Source: a virus
IMG/VR virus record: IMGVR_UViG_3300021255_000032
Length of the DNA stretch: 51,814 bases
Strand: one strand, 5' to 3'
Below the pieces are notes generated by a model that had not been told where the DNA came from, ran no database searches, and saw only the letters and a program-made list of their open reading frames with translations. Numbering within the stretch: the stretch's first letter is position 1; every line of letters begins with the position of its first letter. This document shows positions 1,235-39,524 of the stretch, in pieces. Position numbers and translations under genes: made by a program.

Positions 1235-4200
1235 TAAAGAATTTTATCGCTTGAACCTTGTTCTTGATATGCAAGACAAGCTGACCTCGAAACTTTCCCG
1301 GATTGACGGGAGAGTTAATCAGGTCGAAGCAAGATTTAAGCGAACGGAAACCGCCGTAAAAAGCCTCGGCAATGCGAGAGCTGAACCGAGGGTAACGGCG
1401 CACACAGAGGACGCAGAAAGCAAGCTGAACAGGCTTGAGAGCAACGTCCGAAAAATTGACCGATTGACAGCCCGCGCAAGAGTTGACGCTGACGACAGAG
1501 CCACGGGCAAGACGCAGCAGGTACAAAGCCGATTGCGCAGCATTACGGGCAAGGCTTGGAAAGTTACCTTGTCACTCAAAGACGAAGTAAGCAACAAGCT
1601 GACCGCGATTAAAAGCGGCCTTTCTTCCCCGTTGGCAGCGATGGGCTTGGGCGCGGCGACGATGGGCGTAGGCGGTTTCGCGATTGATTCCGCGCAGAAA
1701 GCTATGGATTTCTCCTATCAGATTTCCAACATTGCAGCCCTAACCAACAAAAGCGAAAAGGAGCTTGAAGGAGTACGGAAAAAAGCCCTCGACCTTGGAG
1801 CTGCGACGCAGTTCTCGTCAACAGAGGCGGCGCAGGGCATGACTGAACTACTCAAGGCAGGTTTGGACATTGAGCAAGTGTTGAATGGCGCGGCTGACGC
1901 GGCCTTGAATTTGGCGGCGGCGGGTGAGCTGGCGCTGCCAGAGGCGGCAGAAATTATGTCCACGGCTATGAACTCTTTTGGATTAGAGGACGCGGCTCAC
2001 GCAGCGGATATTTTAGCCGGGGCGGCGAATGCGTCTGCTACTGATGTTCACGAAATGAAATACGCATTGGCGAGCGTTGCCTCCGTAGCGTCTGCCGTGG
2101 GTATGAGTTTCGACGACACCAACACCGCGCTTGCAGTGTTCGCCTCGAAGGGCTTGAAAGGTTCTGACGCAGGTACATCACTAAAAACGATGTTGATGAG
2201 ATTGCAGCCGGAAACCAAAGCGCAGTATCAAGCGTTTGAGCGTTTAGGCTTACTTACAGAGCAGGGGACAAGCAAATTTTATGACGCAGAGGGGCGTATG
2301 AAGTCTCTCGCTGAAATTGCAGACCTTCTCAGCACAAGCATGGCCGGATTGAACCAGATGGAGCAGCAATCAATGCTTTCCACGATGTTTGGCTCAGACG
2401 CTATCCGAGGCGGCGCGATTCTCACGAAGATGGGCGGCAAAGGTGTACGAGACATGGCGGGAGCTATGACAAAGTACACAGCAGCCGAAGTCGCGAAAAA
2501 GAAGTGGGACAACGCAAAAGGCGACCTTGTCCGCTTACAGTCAGCTTTTCAGAATTTCCAGGTACAAGCATTAGCACCGCTTGAACCTGCTATCGGCAAG
2601 GTTGCGAAAGGGCTAGGCGATTTCTTTAGCGGCAACGTCGAAGGGGCGGCTAACAGCATGGAAAGTCTGTCGAACCGGATTGTCGGCTTTATGGATAGTT
2701 TGGCAGGAGACGAAAAGTTTCAGCAGATGGAATGGGGAGATAAAGTCGTTTATGTTCTTGATAAAATGCTGGAGGCCATTGACGAATGGGTCAGCGGTCC
2801 AGGCGGGCAGCAGTTCGGAAAGGTTCTTGAAAAGCTCGCGGAAATTGGCATGAGGGCGTTTATGGCCGCGCTTATGGGATTGTTCAAAGGGGCAATTAAA
2901 AGCCTGTTTGAAGGCAATTTCGTAGGGGCAGCAGGGCTCGGCCTTGGCTTTACGATGTTAGGCGGCGGGAAGATTCTCGGCGGCTTGGCGAAGGGAGCAA
3001 AGGCAGTCGGCAAAGTTGCCATCGGCGGCGAAAAGGCCGGGGCGATTTTCAGCGACGCAAAAGCACTCGCGCAGGAAAGCGGCAGGGGCAAAATTATGTC
3101 CACGATTGACGCGGCGCAGTTCACAGTCGAAACAAGCCCGGTAGGGAAGTTCTTTCAAGCGGCGAAGCAGTTACCTGCCACGGTCGCAGAAAGCCCCGTA
3201 GGGAAGGCGTTCTCAGCTATTGCAGAAACCCCGGCAGCAAAGGCAGTCGGCAAAGTTGCAAGCAAAGCGGCAGCACCTTTAGCGGCGGCTACGGACGCAT
3301 ACGACCTTGCTACCAGTGATAACAAAGGCGAAAAGGCCGGAGCTATTGCAGGACATTGGGCAGGGGCGGCGGTCGGAGCTAAAGCAGGGGCAGCGGGCGG
3401 CGCGGCCGTCGGCTCGTTGTTTGGCGTTGCAGGAGCTGCACCGGGGGCGGCTATTGGCGGTGCTTTAGGAGGCATTGCGGGCTTTATTGGCGGCGACAAG
3501 GTCGGCGGCATGATAGGAGACTTTATGTCGAAATTCGATTTTTCAGCGGCAAAAGAAAAAGCCGGGGCAATGTTCGACGGCGTCAAAGAGAAAGCCGCAA
3601 ACGCTTTCACAGGAGCAAAAGAACAGGCCGCGAACATCTTCACAGGCGCGAAGGAGCAAGCTGGAGCAATGTTTGACGGGGCAAAAGAGAGGGTAGCAAA
3701 AGCCCTTGATTTCTCGGAGTACATTGACAAGGCAAAAGACCGTTTCGCAAGCATGAAGGAAACCATAGCGCAGACCTTCACGGCTGAAAATATCGGTTTT
3801 GCCATTGGATATGCTTTTGAGCGTTTGCAGATGTTACCGGGGGAGGCTGAACAATATTTAACCGACCTTGGGGAGCGCATAAAGACGGCTTTTTCCGACG
3901 CAGTAACAGCCGCCGGGGAGCAGTTTGACCAATTTGTTACAGAGTCAAAAGCCTATTTTGACCAGCTTATTACAGACGCGGGAACGTGGCTAGACGAATT
4001 TGTTACCAACAATCAGCAGTATTTTGGGCAGCTCGTCGAGGACGCGGGAACGTGGTTGAGTGAATTGCCGGGGAGAGTTGGAGCATGGTACGAGAACACA
4101 AAGACAGCCGCCGGACAGTATTTGTCCCAGATGGCCGAAGATGTTTCTAAGTGGTTCTCAGAATTACCGGGGAGAGCTGAACAGGGATTGAGTGCCCTTT

Positions 4201-12220: not shown

Positions 12221-13210
12221 ATGGAAAGTTTCATCATTGACAAAGACAGAAAAGCAGTAGAGCACGTTTCCGGCGGCAAAATGACGCTGATTTATGACAA
12301 CGCGGGTAACCCGTCTGTCATGTGTGTGATTCCGAAATTCCGCATGGAAGATGTTGACGCGAACCTTGGAACGGGCGTACACCCGGCTTTCCTGGTGCAC
12401 GGAAAAGAAGTGCCGGAAATTTTTATCTCGAAGTATCAGAACGTTATCGCAAACGGCAGAGCCTACTCGCTTGCGCATGAAGACCCGAAAGCCTACATCA
12501 CTTTTGACCAGTCGAAAGCAGCTTGCGACGCAAAAGGCCGGGGCTGGCACATTATGACTCGCGCAGAGTGGGCAGCTATTGCTTTGTGGTGCAAAGCTAA
12601 CGGCTTTATGCCTCGCGGCAACACGGCCTCCGGCAGAGCTTATGACGCCCTGCATGAATGCGGCGTTATGGGCGGCGACGCTCGCACCCTCACGGGCAGC
12701 GGTCCCGTGACGTGGAACCACGACAACACCCCGTACGGCATTAGCGACATGTGCGGTAACATCTGGGAATGGAACGACGGCATGAAGATTATTGATGGCC
12801 ATATCTACATTCACGGCGAAGATGGTGTAGCCATGAACAATTTCGACACCGCGAACATTGAAAACAATGTCAGCGGCTGGGTAAATACAAACGCTTTCTA
12901 CATGGGCGACGGTATGAAGATTGGCGCAGCTCGTGCCAACGCAAAGGGCTATGACGGCAACTTCAAAGACCTTGTAGCCAACAGCGGCTTTACGATTCCG
13001 AACACTCTTAAGCAGCTCGCGCTCGCTCCTACTACGGGCAACACGACTGACGACCATTTCTGGTGCAACACCGAAGGTGAGCGTATCCCGTTCTCGGGTG
13101 GCAATTGGAACCGCGGCTCGACTGCGGGCTTGTTCGTTTTGTCTTTGGACTACGTTCGTTCGCACTCGCACGGCGACATCGGTTTCCGCTCCGCTTATAT
13201 TGCGATTTGA
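12221..13210 (+). CDS. DGR target (variable) protein, FGE-sulfatase / C-type-lectin-fold receptor-binding candidate
   Basis: 329 aa. The VR occupies the last about 43 codons. FGE/CLec-like motifs are present (GWHIMTRAEWAAIALWC, CGNIWEWNDG, GGNWNxG...GFRSA). It is the last gene of the tail fibre module. Confidence 0.9.
   Translation: MESFIIDKDRKAVEHVSGGKMTLIYDNAGNPSVMCVIPKFRMEDVDANLGTGVHPAFLVHGKEVPEIFISKYQNVIANGRAYSLAHEDPKAYITFDQSKAACDAKGRGWHIMTRAEWAAIALWCKANGFMPRGNTASGRAYDALHECGVMGGDARTLTGSGPVTWNHDNTPYGISDMCGNIWEWNDGMKIIDGHIYIHGEDGVAMNNFDTANIENNVSGWVNTNAFYMGDGMKIGAARANAKGYDGNFKDLVANSGFTIPNTLKQLALAPTTGNTTDDHFWCNTEGERIPFSGGNWNRGSTAGLFVLSLDYVRSHSHGDIGFRSAYIAI
13082..13196 (+). repeat. DGR variable repeat (VR)
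   Basis: A 115-nt match to TR (offset 580 nt) with 12 mismatches, each at a TR adenine. It ends in the GC-rich GGTTTCCGCTCCGCTT (IMH-like). Confidence 0.95.
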
Positions 13211-13232
13211 CCCTTGATACTTGTGTTTTGCA

Positions 13233-13254
13233 GGGACGGGCGATAGCCCGTCCC
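13233..13254 (+). other. Hairpin downstream of VR (DGR retrohoming hairpin/cruciform candidate, possibly also a terminator)
   Basis: GGGACGGGC-GATA-GCCCGTCCC: a 9-bp GC-rich stem with a 4-nt loop, 22 nt after the target gene stop. The position matches the VR-proximal hairpin described for the Bordetella phage DGR. Confidence 0.6.
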
Positions 13255-13283
13255 CAGCTTTATAAATAAAACATTTTGAAAGG

Positions 13284-13628
13284 TTGAGAACAACGAACAA
13301 ACTAACCATAATTACAAAAACGAATGATTTACTAGACGAAATTTACGACGCAATAGCACAATATCCGAAGTCGGAAAAATTCGCATTGGGAGCAGACACC
13401 AAACAGACCGGATTAAACTTTTATAGGTTAATCATTACGGCGGCGAAGAAGTATTATAAGAAAACGACATTGAGGGACGCTGATGTAGAATTATTTGTAT
13501 TAAAGAATTTTATCCGTATGGGACATAACCGCAGATACATGAACACAAAACGCTACGAACGATTATCGCGGGCAATCGAAGAAGTAGGCAGAATGTTAGG
13601 CGGTTGGATTCAAACAACGGAAAAATAA
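13284..13628 (+). CDS. avd: DGR accessory variability determinant (Avd-like four-helix-bundle protein)
   Basis: 114 aa, basic, lying between VR and TR. Avd / 23S-rRNA-IVS-family style motif DEIYDAIAQYPKSEKFALGADTKQ. The start codon is uncertain (TTG 13284). Confidence 0.8.
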   Translation: MRTTNKLTIITKTNDLLDEIYDAIAQYPKSEKFALGADTKQTGLNFYRLIITAAKKYYKKTTLRDADVELFVLKNFIRMGHNRRYMNTKRYERLSRAIEEVGRMLGGWIQTTEK

Positions 13629-13661
13629 AAAATAAAAATATTATTGGGGAATAGCTATTTA

Positions 13662-13776
13662 CGTATCCCGTTATCGGGTGGCAATTGGAACAACGGCTCG
13701 AATGCGGGCTTGTTCGATTTGAATTTGAACAACGTTCGTTCGAACTCGAACGGCAACATCGGTTTCCGCTCCGCTT
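13662..13776 (+). repeat. DGR template repeat (TR)
   Basis: Non-coding copy of VR. In the VR frame it reads IPLSGGNWNNGSNAGLFDLNLNNVRSNSNGNIGFRSA with 10 AAY codons. By my count it has 24 adenines, 12 of them substituted in VR. Confidence 0.95.
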
Positions 13777-13979
13777 TACTTCACTCGTCAGAAGTTATAA
13801 CCTCATGGGGTTATATCCAGTACAGAAGTATTAAAGGAGTTATTCTCCATTATTGCAGGGGAAATATACTGCAATAAAAAAATAAAAACGGAACGATACA
13901 GTTAGTAGCTGACCGCGAAAAATGTATCGTTGTTTATGGTAGACAATATTTTAGTAACCCTAAAGGAAGTATTAAACAC
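13777..13979 (+). ncRNA. DGR RNA spacer between TR and RT (structured)
   Basis: No credible ORF. Two hairpins: 13796-13815 (7 bp) and AACGATACA/TGTATCGTT at 13892-13900 / 13923-13931 (9 bp). By analogy, the TR-RT spacer of characterised DGRs is part of the priming RNA. Confidence 0.5.
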
Positions 13980-15044
13980 ATGAAACGGATAAACCATATT
14001 TACAGTAAAATCTATGACTTTGAGAATTTATACGCGGCTTATATGGAAGCGCGGAAAGCGAAAAGGTATAGGCACGATGTTATGAGGTTCACAGCGAACC
14101 TCGAAGAAAATCTCATAGAGCTTCAAAACGAACTCATTTACAAGACTTACAAAGTAGGTCGGTACAATGAGTTTTTTGTTTATGACCCTAAGAAACGACT
14201 TATCATGTCCCTGCCTTTTCGGGACAGAGTTGTGCAATGGGCGATTTACCGCCAGATTAACCCGCTTTTCGATAAGCGATATATTTCAACCTCGTATGGT
14301 TGCAGAGTTGGCGGCGGCGCGCATAGAGCCGTGAAGAAGTTGAAGGAATACATCAGGGCGCAGCCGGGGACAGCTTACGTCCTAAAGATGGATATTAGCA
14401 AATATTTTTATCGCATAAACCATGATGTGCTGATGGGAACGCTTAGAGGCATGATAAAAGACGAAGATTTATTATGGCTTTTGGAAACCATTATACGCGG
14501 CGAACATGATTTTGGGATTGAGGTAGACGATTGGGATTATACAGGGCGACGGCTTTCTAATGTCGGTATGCCGATTGGAAATTTATCCTCACAGATGTTT
14601 GCTAATCTTTATCTTAATGCGGCAGACCATTTTGCCAAAGAAGTATTGAGATGTAAATATTATATCCGTTACATGGACGATATGGTTATCGTCGATACCG
14701 ATAAGAAACGATTGCGGGAAGTGTTGCGGGAAATGGACAGCTTTCTTGTCAATAAATTGGCGTTGAAGCTGAATAATAAAACCTGTATACGGACGGCAAC
14801 ACAGGGCGTTGACTTTTGCGGGTACAGAGTTTGGGGGACTCATATCCGTCTACGTAAAAAATCAGCGATAAAAATGAAACATAGGCTAAAACATCTGCAA
14901 AAAGAATTTTCCAAAGGGAGAATTAAAACGGACACGTTCAGAAATAGCCTAATGAGCTATATGGGAATGTTGGAGCATTGCGACTCCTATTCCTTAAAGA
15001 ACAAGATTTTTGATTCTATTGTTTTGACAAAAGGAGGAAGATAA
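13980..15044 (+). CDS. DGR reverse transcriptase
   Basis: 354 aa. Has the DGR-type motif PIGNLSSQMFANLYL and the catalytic YIRYMDDMVIV (YMDD). Immediately downstream of TR. Confidence 0.95.
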   Translation: MKRINHIYSKIYDFENLYAAYMEARKAKRYRHDVMRFTANLEENLIELQNELIYKTYKVGRYNEFFVYDPKKRLIMSLPFRDRVVQWAIYRQINPLFDKRYISTSYGCRVGGGAHRAVKKLKEYIRAQPGTAYVLKMDISKYFYRINHDVLMGTLRGMIKDEDLLWLLETIIRGEHDFGIEVDDWDYTGRRLSNVGMPIGNLSSQMFANLYLNAADHFAKEVLRCKYYIRYMDDMVIVDTDKKRLREVLREMDSFLVNKLALKLNNKTCIRTATQGVDFCGYRVWGTHIRLRKKSAIKMKHRLKHLQKEFSKGRIKTDTFRNSLMSYMGMLEHCDSYSLKNKIFDSIVLTKGGR

Positions 15045-15046
15045 TT

Positions 15047-15388
15047 ATGCTGAAAAAAATTCATTTCGCCGTTTTGGCGGTTATGTTGATGATAGGGCTT
15101 TTTACTACCCCGGCTTTTTGCTCGGCGGGAGGAATAGACAGGGACAAGCAAATGCACATCGGAGCAAGTGCGGCGGTCGAAGTCTTTATGGCTCATAATA
15201 AGCCGTTTAATAGCTGGGCACCTTGGCAGCGTTCTTTGTTTAATGTGGTTGTTATCGGCGGGGCGAAAGAACTATATGACAGCAGACACCCGGATAGACA
15301 TTCAGCGGATTGGGGCGATATTGGAGCAGACGCAATAGGGGCATTTGGAGCTGAAGGTATGATTTGGCTTGTTCATACAACGTGGTAA
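15047..15388 (+). CDS. Secreted/membrane protein, function unknown
   Basis: N-terminal signal-like MLKKIHFAVLAVMLMIGLFTTPAFCSAGG. 113 aa, between the RT and the holin. Confidence 0.5.
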   Translation: MLKKIHFAVLAVMLMIGLFTTPAFCSAGGIDRDKQMHIGASAAVEVFMAHNKPFNSWAPWQRSLFNVVVIGGAKELYDSRHPDRHSADWGDIGADAIGAFGAEGMIWLVHTTW

Positions 15389-15948: not shown

Positions 15949-16115
15949 ATGGTTTAGCATGGACAGAACTGTACGAAAAATTTTACGCGTTTGCCTACGT
16001 AGCAAGGCGGCAAGGTTTTTACCCGAAACAGATTCAAGAAATGGAATACTCATTATTTGAGATGTGTCCGTTTCCGAGAAATTACCGCCCCGACAAGCGA
16101 TGGAAAAGAAAATAA
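15945..16115 (+). CDS. Small hypothetical protein (56 aa, below the ORF-track cutoff)
   Basis: ATGA overlap with the holin stop. Product MNGLAWTELYEKFYAFAYVARRQGFYPKQIQEMEYSLFEMCPFPRNYRPDKRWKRK*. Confidence 0.35.
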   Translation: MNGLAWTELYEKFYAFAYVARRQGFYPKQIQEMEYSLFEMCPFPRNYRPDKRWKRK

Positions 16116-16171
16116 TAGAACCTCGCAAAGAAACAAGAGAACCTCGCAGAAACGAAAGGAGAAGAAGAAAA

Positions 16172-16900
16172 ATGAGTGTTGATATTAAAGAGACTGACCT
16201 CAGTTTTAACAGCTTATCCGAAAGAAGCTACACGGACATGGTCGTTATTCACCACACAGGCGGCAACGATATCGACGCCTCCGCCGAAGAAATCCACGGA
16301 TGGCATTTGAACAACGGCTGGGCGGGCATCGGTTACCACTATGTTATCCGAAAGGACGGCACTATTGAGCGCGGCAGACCGGAGTGGGCAATCGGCAGCC
16401 ACGCATACGGCGAAAACTCGCATACCATCGGTATTCACCTTTCCGGGGATTTTGAGAACGCAGAGCCGACGGCAGAGCAGCTTGACCGTTGCGGCGCACT
16501 TGTTTCAGACATCTGCGACCGCTACGGGATTCCCATTGACCGCGACCATATCGTAGGTCATGGAGAGCTTATGGCAACCTCTTGCCCCGGTACAAACCTG
16601 CAAGCCCTTCTTGACGATGGCACGATTACGGGGAAGGCCATCTTCTACTACAACCAGACGCACGGCATAGTAGACACCGCAGAGGCCGAAAACACCACCC
16701 CGGCAGAGCAGGACGGCGGCAAGCAGGGCGGCAGAGGCATGGAGCGATTCAATACCGTGGACGCTGTACCGGATTGGGCGAAACCGACGGTCGAAAAGAT
16801 GATTAGCAAAGGGCTGCTGCAGGGCAACGGCGAAAGCCTCGATCTATCCCTCGATATGCTCCGTACGTTTGTTATCAACGACCGGGCAGGACTTTATTGA
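16172..16900 (+). CDS. Endolysin: N-acetylmuramoyl-L-alanine amidase (Amidase_2/PGRP) with a C-terminal SLH-like domain
   Basis: Motifs VVIHHTGG...GWAGIGYHYVI...HTIGIHLSGDF...GHGELMATSCPG. The C-terminus FNTVDAVPDWAKPTVEKMISKGLLQGNG resembles an S-layer-homology motif. ATG 16172 is preferred over 16064. Confidence 0.9.
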   Translation: MSVDIKETDLSFNSLSERSYTDMVVIHHTGGNDIDASAEEIHGWHLNNGWAGIGYHYVIRKDGTIERGRPEWAIGSHAYGENSHTIGIHLSGDFENAEPTAEQLDRCGALVSDICDRYGIPIDRDHIVGHGELMATSCPGTNLQALLDDGTITGKAIFYYNQTHGIVDTAEAENTTPAEQDGGKQGGRGMERFNTVDAVPDWAKPTVEKMISKGLLQGNGESLDLSLDMLRTFVINDRAGLY

Positions 16901-17793: not shown

Positions 17794-18237
17794 ATGAAAC
17801 ATATTCATATTGACCAGTACACCGCCATTTTTAACGCTTTTCTCAAGGAGCACGGCGAACACAAGGAAACCTGCGACAAAAGCGACTGGGGCGACACCTA
17901 CAAAGAGATTTCTTTCAGCGACGGGGCGACTTGGAACGAATGCCGCCGGGCAGATGGCACCTTGGAATTTTGGAACAGCAAGGACAGCAAAAGCCGCATG
18001 GTGGACGAAGGAGCAGAAAATGAATGGTTGAGCTTGGGCGGCGGTTTCACAATCCCCCTCAACGAAAAGTATTCAAAGAGCTTCACGCTCGCGAACTTCT
18101 ACCTCACGAAGAACGGCAAGTACATGAAGGTTAAGTTACAGAGCAATTGGAACAGCAGCTACAACGAAACCCGCTTTCACAACGTAGAAAATTGCGGCGG
18201 CACTCCGATGAATGTTATTGCAGAGTATACGAGATAA
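17794..18237 (+). CDS. Hypothetical protein
   Basis: 147 aa, AAAGGAGGA RBS. Confidence 0.6.
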   Translation: MKHIHIDQYTAIFNAFLKEHGEHKETCDKSDWGDTYKEISFSDGATWNECRRADGTLEFWNSKDSKSRMVDEGAENEWLSLGGGFTIPLNEKYSKSFTLANFYLTKNGKYMKVKLQSNWNSSYNETRFHNVENCGGTPMNVIAEYTR

Positions 18238-18250
18238 GGAGGAACACATC

Positions 18251-18484
18251 ATGGAATTTGTACAGATTGAAGCCGCAAGACAGGGTTACAGCCCCTCGGA
18301 CATTGCAGGAAAGACCTTGACCGTGGCAGAGCTTAGGGAACTTCTCGACCAATACCCGGACGATATGCCCGTGATTTTATCCCACGACAACGGCTACACC
18401 TACGGCGGCATTGGTTACAACGATGTTACCGACGGATATTATGCAGACGAAAACGAAGATAGCTACGGCGAAGGGGAAGAATGA
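18251..18484 (+). CDS. Hypothetical acidic protein
   Basis: 77 aa from ATG 18251 (AAGGAGGA RBS), preferred over the track start 18212. Acidic C-terminal tail YYADENEDSYGEGEE. Confidence 0.6.
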   Translation: MEFVQIEAARQGYSPSDIAGKTLTVAELRELLDQYPDDMPVILSHDNGYTYGGIGYNDVTDGYYADENEDSYGEGEE

Positions 18485-18544
18485 GCCGAAACCTCCCACA
18501 CGGGAGGTCGCCGGGGGATTGACCACCCCCGGCCTGATGATGGC
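18485..18544 (+). ncRNA. Type II hammerhead ribozyme candidate (copy 2)
   Basis: GCC|GAA|A-CCUCCC-ACAC-GGGAGG-U|C^|GCCGGGGG-AUUGACCA-CCCCCGGC|CUGAUGA|U|GGC. Same architecture and identical core as copy 1, with entirely different but still complementary stems I and III. Predicted cleavage is after C18509. Confidence 0.65.
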
Positions 18545-18571
18545 AGGTTGAGAGAAAAGGAGGATTCAAAT

Positions 18572-19369
18572 ATGAACACTTATGAAGAAAAACAAGCCCG
18601 TAGAAGGGAATACTACGAGGCCAAAGCGGCAGCAGCTAGGGCAGAAAGCCACGAGCAGTACAACACCTTCAAAAAGATGGCTGATGTTATCCCGATGGGG
18701 CAGCCGATTCTCGTTGGACACCACAGCGAAAAGAGCGATAGAGCCTATCGCGGCAGAATGACGGGGCACATGGACAAAAGTATCGAGCTCAGCAAGAAGG
18801 CCGAATACTATCAGCAGAAGGCCGAAAGCGTAGGGCAGGGTGGCATAAGCGGGTACGACCCGGACGCGGTTACGAAGTTGAAGGAGAAGCTGGACAAGCT
18901 GAAGGAGCAGCAGGAACGCATGAAGGCGGCAAACAAAGCCCTCCGGCTTAAGGACACCGAAAAGGGCAACGCAAGACTCCGTGAGCAGGGTTATTCTGAA
19001 AAGCAGATTGAAGAACTCCGTACGCCGGATTGTTTCGGGTGCATTGGTTTCGCAAGCTACACCCTCACGAACAACAACGCGAGCATACACCGGATTGAAA
19101 AGCGCATAAAGCAATTGGAGGCAGCCAAAGAGCACGAAGGGGAGGAAAAGGAAACCGACCTTTACAGCTACCGCATAGAGGACGCGCGGGTACAATTCAC
19201 ATTTGACGGCAAGCCAGAGCCGTGCGTAAGGGACATTCTGAAAAGGCACGGATTCAAGTGGGCACCGTCCAGGGGCGCATGGGTAAGACAGGCGACCGCG
19301 AACGGCAGATACGCGGCAAAGAGCGTTATGCAGGAATTAGATGATTTGGAGGCGTTCGATAATGAGTGA
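18572..19369 (+). CDS. DUF3560-like protein
   Basis: GQPILVGHHSEKSDRAYRGRM motif and a C-terminal KRHGFKWAPSRGAWV module, as I recall for DUF3560 proteins of plasmids and phages. ATG 18572 after AAGGAGGA is preferred over TTG 18548. Confidence 0.5.
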   Translation: MNTYEEKQARRREYYEAKAAAARAESHEQYNTFKKMADVIPMGQPILVGHHSEKSDRAYRGRMTGHMDKSIELSKKAEYYQQKAESVGQGGISGYDPDAVTKLKEKLDKLKEQQERMKAANKALRLKDTEKGNARLREQGYSEKQIEELRTPDCFGCIGFASYTLTNNNASIHRIEKRIKQLEAAKEHEGEEKETDLYSYRIEDARVQFTFDGKPEPCVRDILKRHGFKWAPSRGAWVRQATANGRYAAKSVMQELDDLEAFDNE

Positions 19370-35114: not shown

Positions 35115-36053
35115 ATGGAAAATAACTGGCCATACAAGCCGAATATAATTCAAATAGAAACCGTGCAGGGGTGCAATCGGCGTTGCACTTTTTGTGGAAC
35201 GATGGGCATGAAAAGAGAATTTCATTTTGCCGAAAGAAAAACCATTATTCACGCTTGCAAGTTGATAAAGAAAGCAAAACTGAATAGTCGGATTTTGTTG
35301 GCTTGCCACGGCGAGCCAACGCTACACCCTCATATAGTAGGTATTGTTAAGGATATACGAAGAATATTGCCAAATAACATGATTCACCTGTTTACGAACG
35401 GTACTATTATCGAGAAAAAGGAATTATTAGTACCGGCACTTTTTGAGGCCGGATTAAATGACCTTATTTTTGATGAATATAGCGACCATCGTGTAGGTGA
35501 GTTTGTTAGGAAGAGCCATGTATGCAATATGTTTGATATTGTAGAGCAAGGAGCAGGCGTACCGTTATTTGCAAGCAAGAAATTAAACGAGCAAAGGATT
35601 TGCATTGTCCCTCCGATTGACGGTGAAGGGAATACTATAAGCAGAAAAATAATAAACCATTGCGGGGCAGGAGGTAAAGGATTGGACAAGCCTAGTAGCA
35701 AAAAGTGCTCCGTTATTTTCAGAGATTTCATGGTGCGATGGGACGGGAATGTTGCAATTTGTTGCAATGATTTTCGCGGCGAATATTTTGTAACGAATAT
35801 CATGCAACACAATGACCTGAAAGACGTTTATTTCCACCCGCGACTCGAAAGCGCAAGAAAATATTTAATGCTAGGACAAAGAAAGGACATTCACCCTTGC
35901 GATATTTGCAATACTACGCCAATACGGGTAGGGCTTTTGCCAGATAGTGCGGGGAAACTTACACTCAAGAAGCCTAACGAAATTGATAGAACTATTGTCA
36001 GCAAGGTTTATAAGCCGTTGGCAAGCATTGAAAAGAGGGCGTGGGAAAAATGA
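35115..36053 (+). CDS. Radical SAM enzyme with a SPASM/twitch-like Cys-rich C-terminus
   Basis: CxxxCxxC: VQGCNRRCTFCG. C-terminal Cys cluster CSVIFRDFMVRWDGNVAICCNDF...HPCDICN. GGAGGG RBS. Confidence 0.85.
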   Translation: MENNWPYKPNIIQIETVQGCNRRCTFCGTMGMKREFHFAERKTIIHACKLIKKAKLNSRILLACHGEPTLHPHIVGIVKDIRRILPNNMIHLFTNGTIIEKKELLVPALFEAGLNDLIFDEYSDHRVGEFVRKSHVCNMFDIVEQGAGVPLFASKKLNEQRICIVPPIDGEGNTISRKIINHCGAGGKGLDKPSSKKCSVIFRDFMVRWDGNVAICCNDFRGEYFVTNIMQHNDLKDVYFHPRLESARKYLMLGQRKDIHPCDICNTTPIRVGLLPDSAGKLTLKKPNEIDRTIVSKVYKPLASIEKRAWEK

Positions 36054-37627: not shown

Positions 37628-38226
37628 GACTGGAAGAAAAGAACATAAGCGAGCTGAACGCAGCGAAGTATAACCCGCGCGTCACCTTAGAGCCGGGGAT
37701 GGAGGAATTTGAAAAGCTCCGGCGCAGTATTGAGCATTTTGGAGATGTTGAACCCATCGTATGGAACGAGCGCACCGGGAACGTGGTAGGCGGCCATCAG
37801 CGGCTGCAGGTTATGAAGTTCTTAGGCCGCGATACGGCAAAGGTTTCAGTCGTGGATATGCCAGAGGAAGAAGAAAAGCTCCTTAACATTGCCTTGAACA
37901 AGGCCAAAGGCGAATGGGATAACGCAAAGCTGGAAAGCCTTCTGCGGGACATTGACACCGAAACTCTTGATTTTACAGGTTTTGGAGCTGATGAAGTAGC
38001 GATTTTACTTGCAAGCAACGACGGGATAGATGATTCCGACCTCGAAGAAGATACCCCAGACGACTGGCAGGACGGAATAGAGTTCTACGGCGCGTCTTTT
38101 GTTGTTACGCTGAGATTTGCAGGAATAAACGAGGCGCGGGAATGGATAGCCAAAGAAGGATTGGATTTGGCATTGCAGGAAAACAGTCACACAAGCGTAT
38201 ACCGTTTTGGGGAGGGCGAAGTATGA
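37624..38226 (+). CDS. ParB/Srx-like N-terminal-domain protein (copy 2, tandem paralog)
   Basis: KYNPRVTL...VGGHQRL...NIALNKAKGEWD. GTG start overlapping the upstream stop. Confidence 0.8.
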   Translation: MRLEEKNISELNAAKYNPRVTLEPGMEEFEKLRRSIEHFGDVEPIVWNERTGNVVGGHQRLQVMKFLGRDTAKVSVVDMPEEEEKLLNIALNKAKGEWDNAKLESLLRDIDTETLDFTGFGADEVAILLASNDGIDDSDLEEDTPDDWQDGIEFYGASFVVTLRFAGINEAREWIAKEGLDLALQENSHTSVYRFGEGEV

Positions 38227-39524
38227 GTGAGAATAAAAAGCCGGAATTAAAACAGAATTATCCTTCCCCGCGTTGGAGCATGGAAATTCCAGATTGCTCC
38301 ATGCCTATGACGTTCGACACTTATAGCAAGTGCGCATACAATTGCCTGTACTGTTTTGCTTTCTTCCAGAAAAGCCATACGCTGAAAGGCTATAACAGCA
38401 AAAAGAACGCGGGCAAGATTGAGATACGCAGCGTAGACCCTAAGAAGGTTATTGACCTGTTTGAGAAAGCCTTTGCCCACGACGAAAGCGCAAGCGCAGT
38501 ACAAAAGCAATTCTTCCCCTATATCCAGGCAAGGAAGATTATGCAGTGGGGCGGCCTTGCAGACGAATTTGACGAATGGGAACGGCGGTACGGCGTGACC
38601 TTGGAACTTCTCAAGTATTTCGACAAGATAGATTATCCCTTGTCTTTCAGCACCAAAGCGGCGTGGTGGACGCAGGACGAACGGTACATGAGCCTTTTCC
38701 GCAAGCACAAGCACAACTGGCACGTCAAGATTTCGATTATCACGGCTGACGACCACAAAGCAAAACAGATGGAGAAGGGCGTCCCCAGCTCCACGGCGCG
38801 GCTCAGAGCTATTCAGAATTTAGCTAAAGCCGGGATTCATGTCACTTTGAGATTGCGGCCTTTCATTATTGGCGTAAGCAACGACTGGAAGGAGCTTATC
38901 AGCAAAGCCGCTGCGGCTGGCGCGGATTCTGTGACTACGGAATTTTTCTGCATGGAGAGCAGGGCAGACAATGAGCTGAAAGCCCGGTATGCAGCTATGA
39001 GCAAAATTTGTGGATTTGACATTCACAAATTCTATATGAGCAACAGTAAGCAGAACGGGTACAAGCGGCTGAACCGCAGCATTAAAGCACCGATTATCCG
39101 TGAAATGCGGGATTTTGCGCATAAGCTCGGCTTGAGATTTCATGTCAGCGACGCTTTCTGCAGAGAGTGTAACGACGCTTGCAATTGTTGCGGCGTCCCC
39201 CCCGAATGGAACGTGAGCCAGACGGGGCAAATCGGACAGGCTATCATCATCGCCCGGACGAAGGGCGAAGTCAGATTTTCGGATATCAAGCCCCATATAT
39301 ACCAATTTTTCAACGGTTTCAGATGGGCAAGTGCGCAGGAGTACAACACCGGGAGTAACAAAGCCCGCGCCTTGAAATACGATATGACGATGGCAGAGTT
39401 TTTGCGGAACAACTGGAACAATGTCAACGGGGCGACTTCACCCGCAAAGGGTTACGGCGGCATTTTGAAGCCCTGCGGCGTTGATGAAAATGGAGATGTT
39501 ATATACAAGTACAATGGGAAATAA
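38223..39524 (+). CDS. Radical SAM enzyme (SplB / DNA-repair-photolyase-like style of cluster motif)
   Basis: CxxxCxxC: YSKCAYNCLYCFAF. 433 aa from ATG 38223, with an ATGA overlap with ParB copy 2. Confidence 0.85.
   Translation: MSENKKPELKQNYPSPRWSMEIPDCSMPMTFDTYSKCAYNCLYCFAFFQKSHTLKGYNSKKNAGKIEIRSVDPKKVIDLFEKAFAHDESASAVQKQFFPYIQARKIMQWGGLADEFDEWERRYGVTLELLKYFDKIDYPLSFSTKAAWWTQDERYMSLFRKHKHNWHVKISIITADDHKAKQMEKGVPSSTARLRAIQNLAKAGIHVTLRLRPFIIGVSNDWKELISKAAAAGADSVTTEFFCMESRADNELKARYAAMSKICGFDIHKFYMSNSKQNGYKRLNRSIKAPIIREMRDFAHKLGLRFHVSDAFCRECNDACNCCGVPPEWNVSQTGQIGQAIIIARTKGEVRFSDIKPHIYQFFNGFRWASAQEYNTGSNKARALKYDMTMAEFLRNNWNNVNGATSPAKGYGGILKPCGVDENGDVIYKYNGK

Follow-up and report, generated by a model that had tools for sequence, protein, structure and literature searches.

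A complete and apparently active diversity-generating retroelement of the Bordetella-phage type in a rumen phage, probably of Selenomonas

Described elements and the layout of the cassette

The prototype of the diversity-generating retroelements (DGRs) is the mtd-avd-TR-brt element of phage BPP-1. In this element, cDNA synthesis depends on the reverse transcriptase (RT), is mutagenic at adenines and is primed from the spacer RNA, and the cDNA is integrated at VR (PMC6182149). A GC-rich inverted repeat with a 4-nt GRNA loop, which follows VR and is absent after TR, has been defined experimentally in BPP-1, and the distances of such hairpins tabulated in 2011 range from 4 to 34 bp (PMC3240598). 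The RTs of DGRs carry the signature [I/V/L]GxxxSQ in place of QGxxxSP (PMC7826257), and the order of target gene with VR, avd, TR, spacer RNA and RT is known as architecture B1 (Wu et al. 2018). The source paper of the RNA motif RT-14 (Weinberg et al. 2017) tied only RT-10 to a DGR, as the spacer of BPP-1, and its authors raised the speculative possibility that further RT motifs have a role in DGRs or retrons. A DGR in a prophage of Thermus aquaticus has TaqVP as its variable protein (PDB 5VF4), and phage DGRs with CLec-type VRs are also present in the Bacillus phage BalMu-1 and in the Vibrio phages VHML and VP585.

We analysed a stretch of viral DNA of 51,814 nt (IMG/VR record IMGVR_UViG_3300021255_000032), here called the window. 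Positions 12221–15044 of its + strand contain a target gene with VR, avd, TR, a spacer and an RT gene in the order of architecture B1. This order had been proposed in a preliminary description of the DNA, and it agrees with the ORF calls and with the family matches of the encoded proteins. We are highly confident that the cassette is a functional DGR, that its architecture is the commonest one and that its carrier is a temperate phage or prophage with a contractile tail whose hosts are rumen Negativicutes, probably Selenomonas. The element is complete and apparently active. As a DGR of the Bordetella-phage type, it falls into a class that has been catalogued extensively, and it is an ordinary example of this class. 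Its features are as follows:

12221–13210, + strand: target (variable-protein) gene, 329 aa, single-domain FGE-subtype CLec of the TaqVP type with a C-terminal VR
13082–13196, + strand: VR, 115 nt, target codons 288–326, differs from TR at 12 positions, each a TR adenine
13179–13196, + strand: adenine-free constant VR 3' end TCGGTTTCCGCTCCGCTT, IMH-like, same as TR 13759–13776, encodes the conserved GFRSA motif
13233–13254, + strand: GC-rich inverted repeat GGGACGGGC-GATA-GCCCGTCCC, 9-bp stem and GATA loop, DGR target-recognition hairpin/cruciform
13284–13628, + strand: avd (accessory variability determinant), 114 aa, pI 9.9, bAvd / DivGenRetAVD / phrog_3206
13662–13776, + strand: TR, 115 nt, non-coding, 24 adenines, 10 AAY codons in the target frame
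13774–13933, + strand: structured spacer RNA, Rfam RF02921 (RT-14), 84 bits compared to a gathering score of 48.1, full-length model
13980–15044, + strand: DGR RT, 354 aa, Pfam RVT_1, closest solved structure BPP-1 bRT

When comparing this element to that of BPP-1, we find the same gene order, TR/VR differences at adenines only and the same Avd family. The RTs share IG..[ST]SQ, YMDD and the equivalents of R74 and I181. Furthermore, both elements have a C-terminal VR in an FGE-type lectin fold, a GC hairpin with a GRNA tetraloop after VR and a structured RNA between TR and RT. They differ in the spacer, which is RT-14 here and RT-10 in BPP-1, and in the length of VR, which is 115 nt here compared to 134 nt. 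The hairpin here is 36 nt away from the VR end, a little outside the range tabulated in 2011, and within the repeat we see no IMH/IMH* mismatch. In addition, the host here is a Gram-negative-type Firmicute, and over the whole chain the target reaches a Foldseek TM score of only about 0.3 with Mtd.

Among the deposited phages (INPHARED), we found no near relative; none of them matches over more than 10% of the cassette, and BalMu-1 comes closest (10% of the query, 75% identity). The similarity to BalMu-1 extends over TR, the spacer and the start of the RT gene (about 75% nucleotide identity) and that to VHML and VP585 over TR only (about 77%), whereas the rest of these three genomes has no match to the window. 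Closer relatives are six rumen or gut phage contigs in IMG/VR (L001–L006) and a prophage of Selenomonas ruminantium S137 (L082), whose RTs are 83–98% and whose targets are 80–94% identical to those of the window. These relatives have the same cassette, hairpin and RT-14, but each of them has its own VR, and their TRs differ at 0–7 non-adenine positions. The cassette is complete in the S137 prophage, and with a near relative in a cultured host the element is open to experiment. Tens of thousands of members of this class have been catalogued; the element is one more well-formed phage DGR, changes no concept and provides a clean and complete example from phages of rumen Negativicutes.

Adenine-only differences in the repeats and VR variation among relatives

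A repeat search of the window detected TR and VR as a direct repeat of 115 nt with 90% identity. The preliminary description had listed 12 differences between the two copies, and our script recovered exactly those TR positions and VR bases. All 12 mismatches are located on TR adenines, and the 91 non-A positions are the same in both repeats. A count likewise returned 24 adenines in TR, half of which are substituted, and the quoted TR and VR peptides, including the 10 AAY codons, match the translation. With 24 A in 115 bases, 12 mismatches placed at random would all hit an A with a hypergeometric probability of 4.4e-10. Both strands of the window were also scanned with TR after masking its adenines; only VR and TR were returned, with no third repeat copy, extra VR or remote target. 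The 14 adenine-containing codons (10 of them AAY) give a theoretical repertoire of 7.4e13 protein variants, and no stop codon can be reached by substitution of TR adenines. The repertoire had been estimated at near 10^13; our figure is nearer 1e14.

Of the 30 closest relatives in IMG/VR, about 24 have the cassette with adenine-only mismatches, and the RT ORF is intact in all ten relatives that were checked, so a loss of RT function in all relatives does not apply. TR is identical in L001, whose RT is 98% identical to that of the window, and that of L004 has a single nucleotide difference. In L002, L003 and L004, non-adenine changes of TR have been copied into the VR of the same genome. To assess natural variation, we used contigs of relatives that are 95–98% identical to the window. 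The VRs of close relatives differ from that of the window only at codons that contain an adenine in TR. For instance, the near-identical proteins P0131, P0001 and P0002 have differences at 7–9 of 287 non-VR residues compared to 11–13 of 38 VR residues, and each of these VR differences sits at an adenine-containing TR codon.

Searches of IMG/VR and of a metagenome collection with the flanking anchors alone yielded three loci, which represent two distinct contigs, and the population test therefore comprises few sequences. One locus retrieved in this way, L085, has upstream DNA that is 95% identical to the window. Its VR differs from the TR of the window at 14 A sites and at no non-A site, and from the VR of the window at 19 of 115 positions. 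Both L085 and L001 stem from one metagenome; they overlap by 151 nt with 5 differences, all of which are at TR-adenine sites. Natural VR variation is confined to TR-adenine sites in these contigs of relatives, including the two variants in one metagenome, and neither an invariant VR nor variation outside these sites, which the preliminary description had named as contrary results, was observed; the number of sequences is small. The single other contig that holds an identical target protein also has an identical VR.

The homology between VR and TR had been described to end at a GC-rich, IMH-like segment, and we find that it stops exactly there. The A-free segment that ends both repeats has 18 nt with 61% GC and is identical in VR and TR, and the two sequences diverge fully right after it. 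The same or a near-identical 16-mer closes VR in most relatives. As the A-free 3' segment is identical in both repeats, IMH and IMH* are not distinguishable in the repeat; Wu et al. note DGRs with such identical ends and suggest that recognition extends downstream. Downstream of VR, the proposed 9-bp GC stem with a GATA loop is present and starts 22 nt past the TGA stop of the target and 36 nt past the VR end. Its DNA fold has an energy of -15.5 kcal/mol (z=-5.0). In all 25 loci examined (the window and 24 relatives), we observed a GC stem of 6–11 bp with a 4-nt GRNA loop located 24–40 nt past VR. The loops are GATA, GGTA, GAGA, GGCA or GGGA, and the stem sequences covary.

Reverse transcriptase, Avd and spacer RNA

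The two motifs that had been reported for the RT were both located, IGNLSSQ at residues 199–205 (nt 14574–14594) and YMDD at residues 231–234 (nt 14670–14681). The best PDB match of the RT is BPP-1 bRT (8ub7; 161 bits, E=4e-46), compared to 84 bits (1e-22) for the best group II RT, and all group II and retron RTs score at most 84 bits. By these best matches, the RT sides with the Bordetella DGR RT and not with retrons or group II introns. It aligns residue by residue with the published R74 and I181 of BPP-1 bRT, where the equivalent of R74 is residue 73. No non-DGR RT model of NCBIfam is matched by the RT above its cut-off. An assignment as group II intron RT/maturase was rejected (TIGR04416, 132.9 bits compared to a cut-off of 300), and Rfam detected no group II intron RNA in the window. 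The same applies to an assignment as retron RT (NF038233, 49.3 bits compared to a cut-off of 235), and no retron RNA family was matched.

The Avd protein matches Pfam bAvd with 103.9 bits (cut-off 40) and the NCBIfam equivalog DivGenRetAVD with 107.6 bits (cut-off 80), and it belongs to phrog_3206, 'Avd protein of DGR'. A sequence search of the PDB gave no match at E<=0.1, and the family membership is based on Pfam and NCBIfam. The start of avd is uncertain; a TTG is located directly after GAAAGG.

The spacer between TR and the RT gene had been described as structured and about 200 nt long. It has 203 nt, its RNA fold has a z-score of -4.1, and it contains the match to RT-14. In all 15 related loci that were scanned, RT-14 abuts TR and always starts 2–3 nt inside the TR 3' end. 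According to RNAalifold, 12 of the 17 predicted pairs of the spacer keep pairing through changes on both sides. These matches tie the Rfam family RT-14 to the spacer between TR and RT in a bona fide lineage of DGRs; our literature search for a paper linking RT-14 to DGRs found none. The RT-14 spacer presumably corresponds to the Sp RNA from which cDNA synthesis is primed in BPP-1, and inspection by eye for a TR-spacer pairing equivalent to the BPP-1 priming duplex gave nothing convincing. On balance, we favour the view that RT-14, an orphan family in Rfam, is the priming and scaffolding spacer RNA of a large lineage of DGRs in Firmicute and rumen or gut phages and that it is structurally distinct from RT-10. 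If this is true, template-primed cDNA synthesis by the RT-Avd complexes of DGRs relies on several RNA architectures that are not homologous, and the S. ruminantium S137 prophage would be a cultured test system.

The preliminary description had concluded that the locus undergoes adenine-specific mutagenic retrohoming, and the corresponding parts were all found: adenine-only mismatches, Avd, a DGR-type RT, a lectin-fold target, the hairpin and the spacer RNA. We infer the biochemical steps by analogy to BPP-1. The complex of RT and Avd would bind a transcript that spans the end of avd, TR and the RT-14 spacer, and cDNA synthesis would be primed within the spacer RNA and proceed back through TR. 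The RT would be faithful at C, G and U and would insert random nucleotides opposite adenines. At the 3' end of the target gene, the cDNA would then replace VR while TR stays unchanged, and the target site would be marked by the A-free, GC-rich end of VR together with the GC hairpin that follows it. This would randomise 14 codons (10 AAY) on the predicted ligand-binding face of the TaqVP-like lectin fold, with up to 7.4e13 variants.

The target protein and alternative explanations

The target matches Pfam FGE-sulfatase with 23.9 bits (cut-off 23.3), and no NCBIfam family was found for it. Its best PHROG is phrog_2889 (5e-119), a family of unknown function, and secondary matches include 'tail protein' families, for instance phrog_5302 at 1e-20. 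The closest solved relative is TaqVP, which phmmer detects over the full length with about 33% identity (PDB 5vf4, E=2.8e-64). In the preliminary description, the target had been taken for a lectin-fold protein; this is borne out by an AlphaFold model (pLDDT 93.6), for which the top Foldseek match is again TaqVP with a TM score of 0.89–0.91, followed by Mtd and TvpA. The VRs of the target and of TaqVP align. Both proteins are prophage-encoded, single-domain FGE-subtype CLecs with VR at the extreme C-terminus, whereas TaqVP has 381 aa and longer inserts than the 329-aa target. This compact TaqVP-like lectin scaffold might be of interest for molecular display with DGR variable proteins.

Diversification of VR most likely alters the recognition of host receptors by the virion, which we infer from gene position and homology. 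The target gene directly follows genes for Baseplate_J, a Mu Gp48-like protein, a 549-aa protein at the tail-fibre position and a 132-aa protein; these genes share its strand, and the gaps between them are short. It also has secondary matches to tail proteins and no signal peptide, and a global survey found that viral DGR targets are mostly tail proteins (PMC8144416). These observations argue against an active DGR that diversifies something other than the virion's receptor-binding protein, which could be a decoration or adhesin protein with affinity for polysaccharide or host mucus, or a protein that the prophage expresses and that acts at the cell surface. In the last case, diversification would serve something other than host-range switching. 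We consider such a target unlikely, although several points are in its favour. The best PHROG has no known function, no tail-fibre attachment domain was recognised in the target, and the gene sits at the boundary to the lysis cassette with its holin and amidase genes, which is a frequent place of accessory genes. Furthermore, the target has a single TaqVP-like domain, and the published TaqVP is a monomer of unknown ligand and virion location, so that it does not settle the function of the target.

The adenine pattern might instead record the past activity of a fossil DGR that has ceased to mobilise in this genome, as could be suggested by the single other contig that has the same protein and the same VR. 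We regard this as very improbable, as all ORFs are intact with their catalytic motifs, the hairpin and the spacer RNA are intact, and VR has turned over among relatives with 95–98% identity, including two variants in one sample. In addition, none of the 91 non-A positions differs between TR and VR, and therefore no drift has occurred since the last homing event. A further explanation is an ordinary duplication or gene-conversion tract beside an unrelated retron or group II intron RT, with an adenine bias that arose by chance. The GenBank label of the BalMu-1 homologue, 'retron-type RNA-directed DNA polymerase', and the group II RT/maturase model as the top-scoring NCBIfam match of the RT would fit this explanation. 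However, the chance of the adenine bias is 4e-10, and the same bias is observed in about 24 independent loci. The RT scores far below the cut-offs of the group II model (132.9 compared to 300 bits) and of the retron model (49 compared to 235 bits), Rfam detects RT-14 and no group II intron or retron RNA, and the DGR-specific Avd is present. We thus consider a chance duplication to be refuted.

The segment of avd, TR and RT had been described as AT-rich and as a sign of modular acquisition. The GC content is indeed lower in avd (0.38), the spacer (0.34) and the RT gene (0.41) compared to the target (0.53) and the upstream structural genes (0.52). A recent acquisition was rejected: avd and RT are below the GC content of the target in 12 of 13 relatives, with RT identities of 54–87%. 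Since the dip is lineage-wide, the low GC content is not evidence of a recent event. The low GC content is a constant feature of this cassette, and the proteins encoded by avd and the RT gene are basic and Lys-rich, with a pI of 9.7–9.9.

Repeat pair and potential repertoire

A repeat search of the region returned a single strong direct repeat (13082–13196 and 13662–13776, 115 nt, 90% identity), the variable repeat (VR) and template repeat (TR) of a diversity-generating retroelement (DGR). When the copies were compared position by position, we observed 12 mismatches, and all of them (12/12) fall on adenines of the downstream copy, the TR, exactly where the preliminary description had placed them. 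Of the 115 TR bases, 24 are adenines, and the remaining 91 all agree with the VR; the chance that 12 randomly placed mismatches would all hit adenines is 4.4e-10. The homology is not extendable by even one base on either side, and no third copy was found on either strand of the window. The VR lies in frame at codons 288–326 of the 329-codon target ORF, and the TR is intergenic. The quoted TR and VR peptides, and the 10 AAY codons of the TR, were also recovered.

From the 14 adenine-containing codons we predict a repertoire of 7.4e13 protein variants, with no stop codon reachable. The earlier estimate, near 1e13, was too low in its order, as the computed value is nearer 1e14. The 16-mer previously called 'IMH-like' is present, but it is part of an 18-nt A-free segment at the repeat end that TR and VR share without any difference. 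Any distinction between IMH and IMH* would therefore have to sit further downstream, and Wu et al. have described such cases before.

Components of the cassette

Two elements surround the TR:
13284–13628, between VR and TR: avd, 114 aa (Pfam bAvd, 104 bits)
Starting 3 nt inside the TR: spacer RNA, full-length match to Rfam RT-14 (84 bits; gathering score 48.1)

The 114-aa ORF reaches 107.6 bits with the NCBI curated DGR Avd equivalog model (cut-off 80), and its product is basic (pI 9.9). The only conventional start of avd is a TTG that directly abuts a GAAAGG Shine-Dalgarno-like sequence with zero spacing (13278–13290), so that the true start or the mode of translation is uncertain; the Pfam match in the product starts at residue 8.

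The best solved relative of the 354-aa reverse transcriptase (RT) is the DGR enzyme of Bordetella phage BPP-1 (8ub7, E=4e-46, 161 bits), and group II intron RTs score at most 84 bits. The RT carries the IGNLSSQ and YMDD motifs, as described before. In the alignment to 8ub7, IGNLSSQ stands opposite IGSLTSQ of the BPP-1 enzyme (bRT), and [I/V/L]GxxxSQ is the published signature of DGR RTs (PMC7826257). The equivalents of bRT Arg74 and Ile181, which have been shown to promote adenine mutagenesis (PMC7826257), are conserved. With the group II, retron, DRT and AbiA models the RT scores far under each cut-off, and a group II or retron identity was rejected.

The spacer between TR and RT, described as about 200 nt long, measures 203 nt. 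RT-14 follows the TR in 15/15 related loci scanned, and in their aligned spacers 12 of 17 predicted pairs still pair despite changes on both sides. In the original description of the RT motifs, RT-10 was shown to be the TR-RT spacer of BPP-1, and the authors speculated that other DGRs use other motifs of this group. Our results allow RT-14 to be assigned to this position in a genuine DGR lineage, which is the sole mildly new point of our analysis.

The hairpin described after the target stop was confirmed: its 9-bp GC stem, closed by a GATA loop, begins 22 nt beyond the stop. It fits the BPP-1-type element of Guo et al., which is needed for efficient retrohoming and consists of a GC stem of 7–10 bp and a GRNA loop of 4 nt, its distance from the VR being variable (PMC3240598); at 36 nt from the VR end, it lies marginally outside the 4–34 bp range tabulated in 2011 (PMC3240598). 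A GC hairpin occurs 24–40 nt past the VR in 25/25 loci examined (loops GATA, GGTA, GAGA, GGCA or GGGA), and its stems differ in sequence while complementarity is kept.

Along its whole length, the target aligns with PDB 5VF4 (E=2.8e-64), the structure of TaqVP. TaqVP is a DGR variable protein from a Thermus aquaticus prophage, with an FGE-subtype C-type-lectin fold and a C-terminal VR. An AlphaFold model from 62 homologues (mean pLDDT 93.6) superposes on TaqVP with a TM of 0.89–0.91, which bears out the lectin fold proposed earlier. After TaqVP, the structural search ranks the other two variable proteins of bacterial DGRs, Mtd and TvpA.

Variation and composition among relatives

We found 320 RT relatives in IMG/VR. 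About 24 of the closest 30 have a VR/TR pair of 110–123 nt with the same spacing and essentially adenine-only mismatches. In three related loci (L002, L003 and L004), the non-adenine changes of the TR relative to the window TR recur in each locus's own VR; these shared changes are the footprint of information transfer from TR to VR. The closest relatives of the target protein (P0131, P0001 and P0002) differ from it at 7–9 of 287 residues outside the VR and at 11–13 of 38 inside, all of the latter at adenine-containing TR codons.

A second search used only the VR flanking anchors as query and left the VR itself unconstrained. It retrieved L085, a contig also listed as L087, which shares 95% identity with the window over the upstream 800 nt. 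All differences between its VR and the window TR are at adenines, and 19/115 positions distinguish this VR from that of the window. L085 stems from the same source metagenome as L001, a locus whose TR equals that of the window and whose RT is 98% identical to the window RT. Both overlap by 151 nt over the VR end, with five differences, all at TR-adenine sites, and this is VR polymorphism within one sample. Such polymorphism is probably the reason for the assembly breaks at this overlap. L085/L087 ends 108 nt beyond the VR, L001 begins inside it, and the 57.5-kb ENA contig L084, which encodes a protein identical to the target, ends 373 nt past the gene. Microdiversity of the VR, together with the TR/VR repeat, could account for this fragmentation of metagenome assemblies.

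An invariant VR, variation beyond TR-adenine sites, an RT grouping with retrons or group II introns or disrupted RT genes in relatives had been named as evidence against the element, and we encountered none of these: VR variation was restricted to TR-adenine sites in the relatives compared, and the RT ORF with both motifs is intact in 10/10 relatives checked. Target homologues of 80–84% identity occur in Selenomonas ruminantium S137 and a Megasphaera MAG, each with a complete cassette; no close deposited phage genome was found. A more distant relative, L019 (IMGVR_UViG_2588253772_000001, RT 52% identical), has a TR-like sequence repeated three times in tandem, every 304 nt, ahead of its RT (3102–3826). 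The second and third copies hardly differ from one another and show many non-adenine differences from the only VR of the locus; the first has mismatches at 14 adenines and 10 non-adenine positions. L019 may be a multi-TR DGR with targets beyond the fetched stretch.

The lower GC content noted for avd, TR and RT is real: avd, spacer and RT (13200–15050, and the equivalents in L002–L029) lie 10–15 GC points under the target and flanking structural genes. The proposed modular acquisition is not indicated as a recent event in this genome, as the dip is common to the window and 12/13 relatives that span 54–87% RT identity. It is a stable compositional property of the cassette rather than a mark of recent transfer.

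Proposed mechanism and role, and neighbouring genes

Anatomy, part families and adenine-only variation all agree with a complete DGR that targets a lectin-fold protein, as proposed. The anatomy and natural variation observed here are best explained by canonical mutagenic retrohoming of the kind established in BPP-1. By analogy, the avd-TR-spacer RNA would be bound by an RT-Avd complex, and cDNA would be primed from the spacer, as it is from the 2'-OH of Sp A56 in BPP-1 (PMC6182149). Reverse transcription would be selectively unfaithful at adenines, and the cDNA would replace the VR, directed there by the downstream hairpin and the GC-rich, adenine-free end of the VR.

The window represents a temperate contractile-tailed phage or prophage. 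It encodes a tail tube protein, an XkdN-like chaperone, a tape measure protein, a YQBQ-like protein, a sheath initiator, Baseplate_J, a Mu Gp48-like protein, a large serine recombinase, and RecT-like, portal and capsid proteins. The target lies at the distal end of the baseplate/tail-fibre block, preceded by 549-aa and 132-aa ORFs of no recognised family; the DGR is followed by a small lipoprotein-like ORF and the lysis genes, a holin and an Amidase_2 endolysin. We infer a role in receptor switching from this position, from weak PHROG matches to tail proteins and from a global survey in which viral DGR targets are mostly tail proteins (PMC8144416); a different biological role of the target is less likely. 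The layout is architecture B1, the commonest among DGRs (Wu et al.). Target fold, accessory protein, hairpin and curated spacer RNA family are already known, and the ecosystem is covered by the global survey (PMC8144416). The observation is correct and was well made, but the DGR is ordinary.

Further elements were found in the window:
18484–18552, + strand: type II hammerhead ribozyme (Rfam RF02276, 43.7 bits; gathering score 37)
35115–36053 and 38142–39524, + strand: two radical-SAM-type genes upstream of the portal gene
15047–15388, + strand: 113-aa ORF with a signal-peptide or lipoprotein-like N-terminus (MLKKIHFAVLAVMLMIGLFTTPAFCSAGG)
16064–16900, + strand: endolysin, Amidase_2 and a weak C-terminal SLH-domain match (E=0.008, below cut-off)

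The hammerhead spans the interval from the stop codon of a 90-aa ORF (18212–18484) to the start of a DUF3560 gene (18548–19369), and equivalents occupy the same relative position in the IMG/VR relative L003 (8437–8502) and the S. ruminantium S137 prophage L082 (16202–16267). Radical_SAM and SPASM domains occur together in one radical-SAM-type gene, and the second matches Radical_SAM only weakly; such genes are unusual phage cargo. The 113-aa ORF begins 2 nt past the RT stop, overlaps the holin ORF call and has weak PHROG matches, one of them to a 'lipoprotein' family; its product may resemble a spanin or act in exclusion. The SLH-domain match in the endolysin would fit a Negativicutes host.
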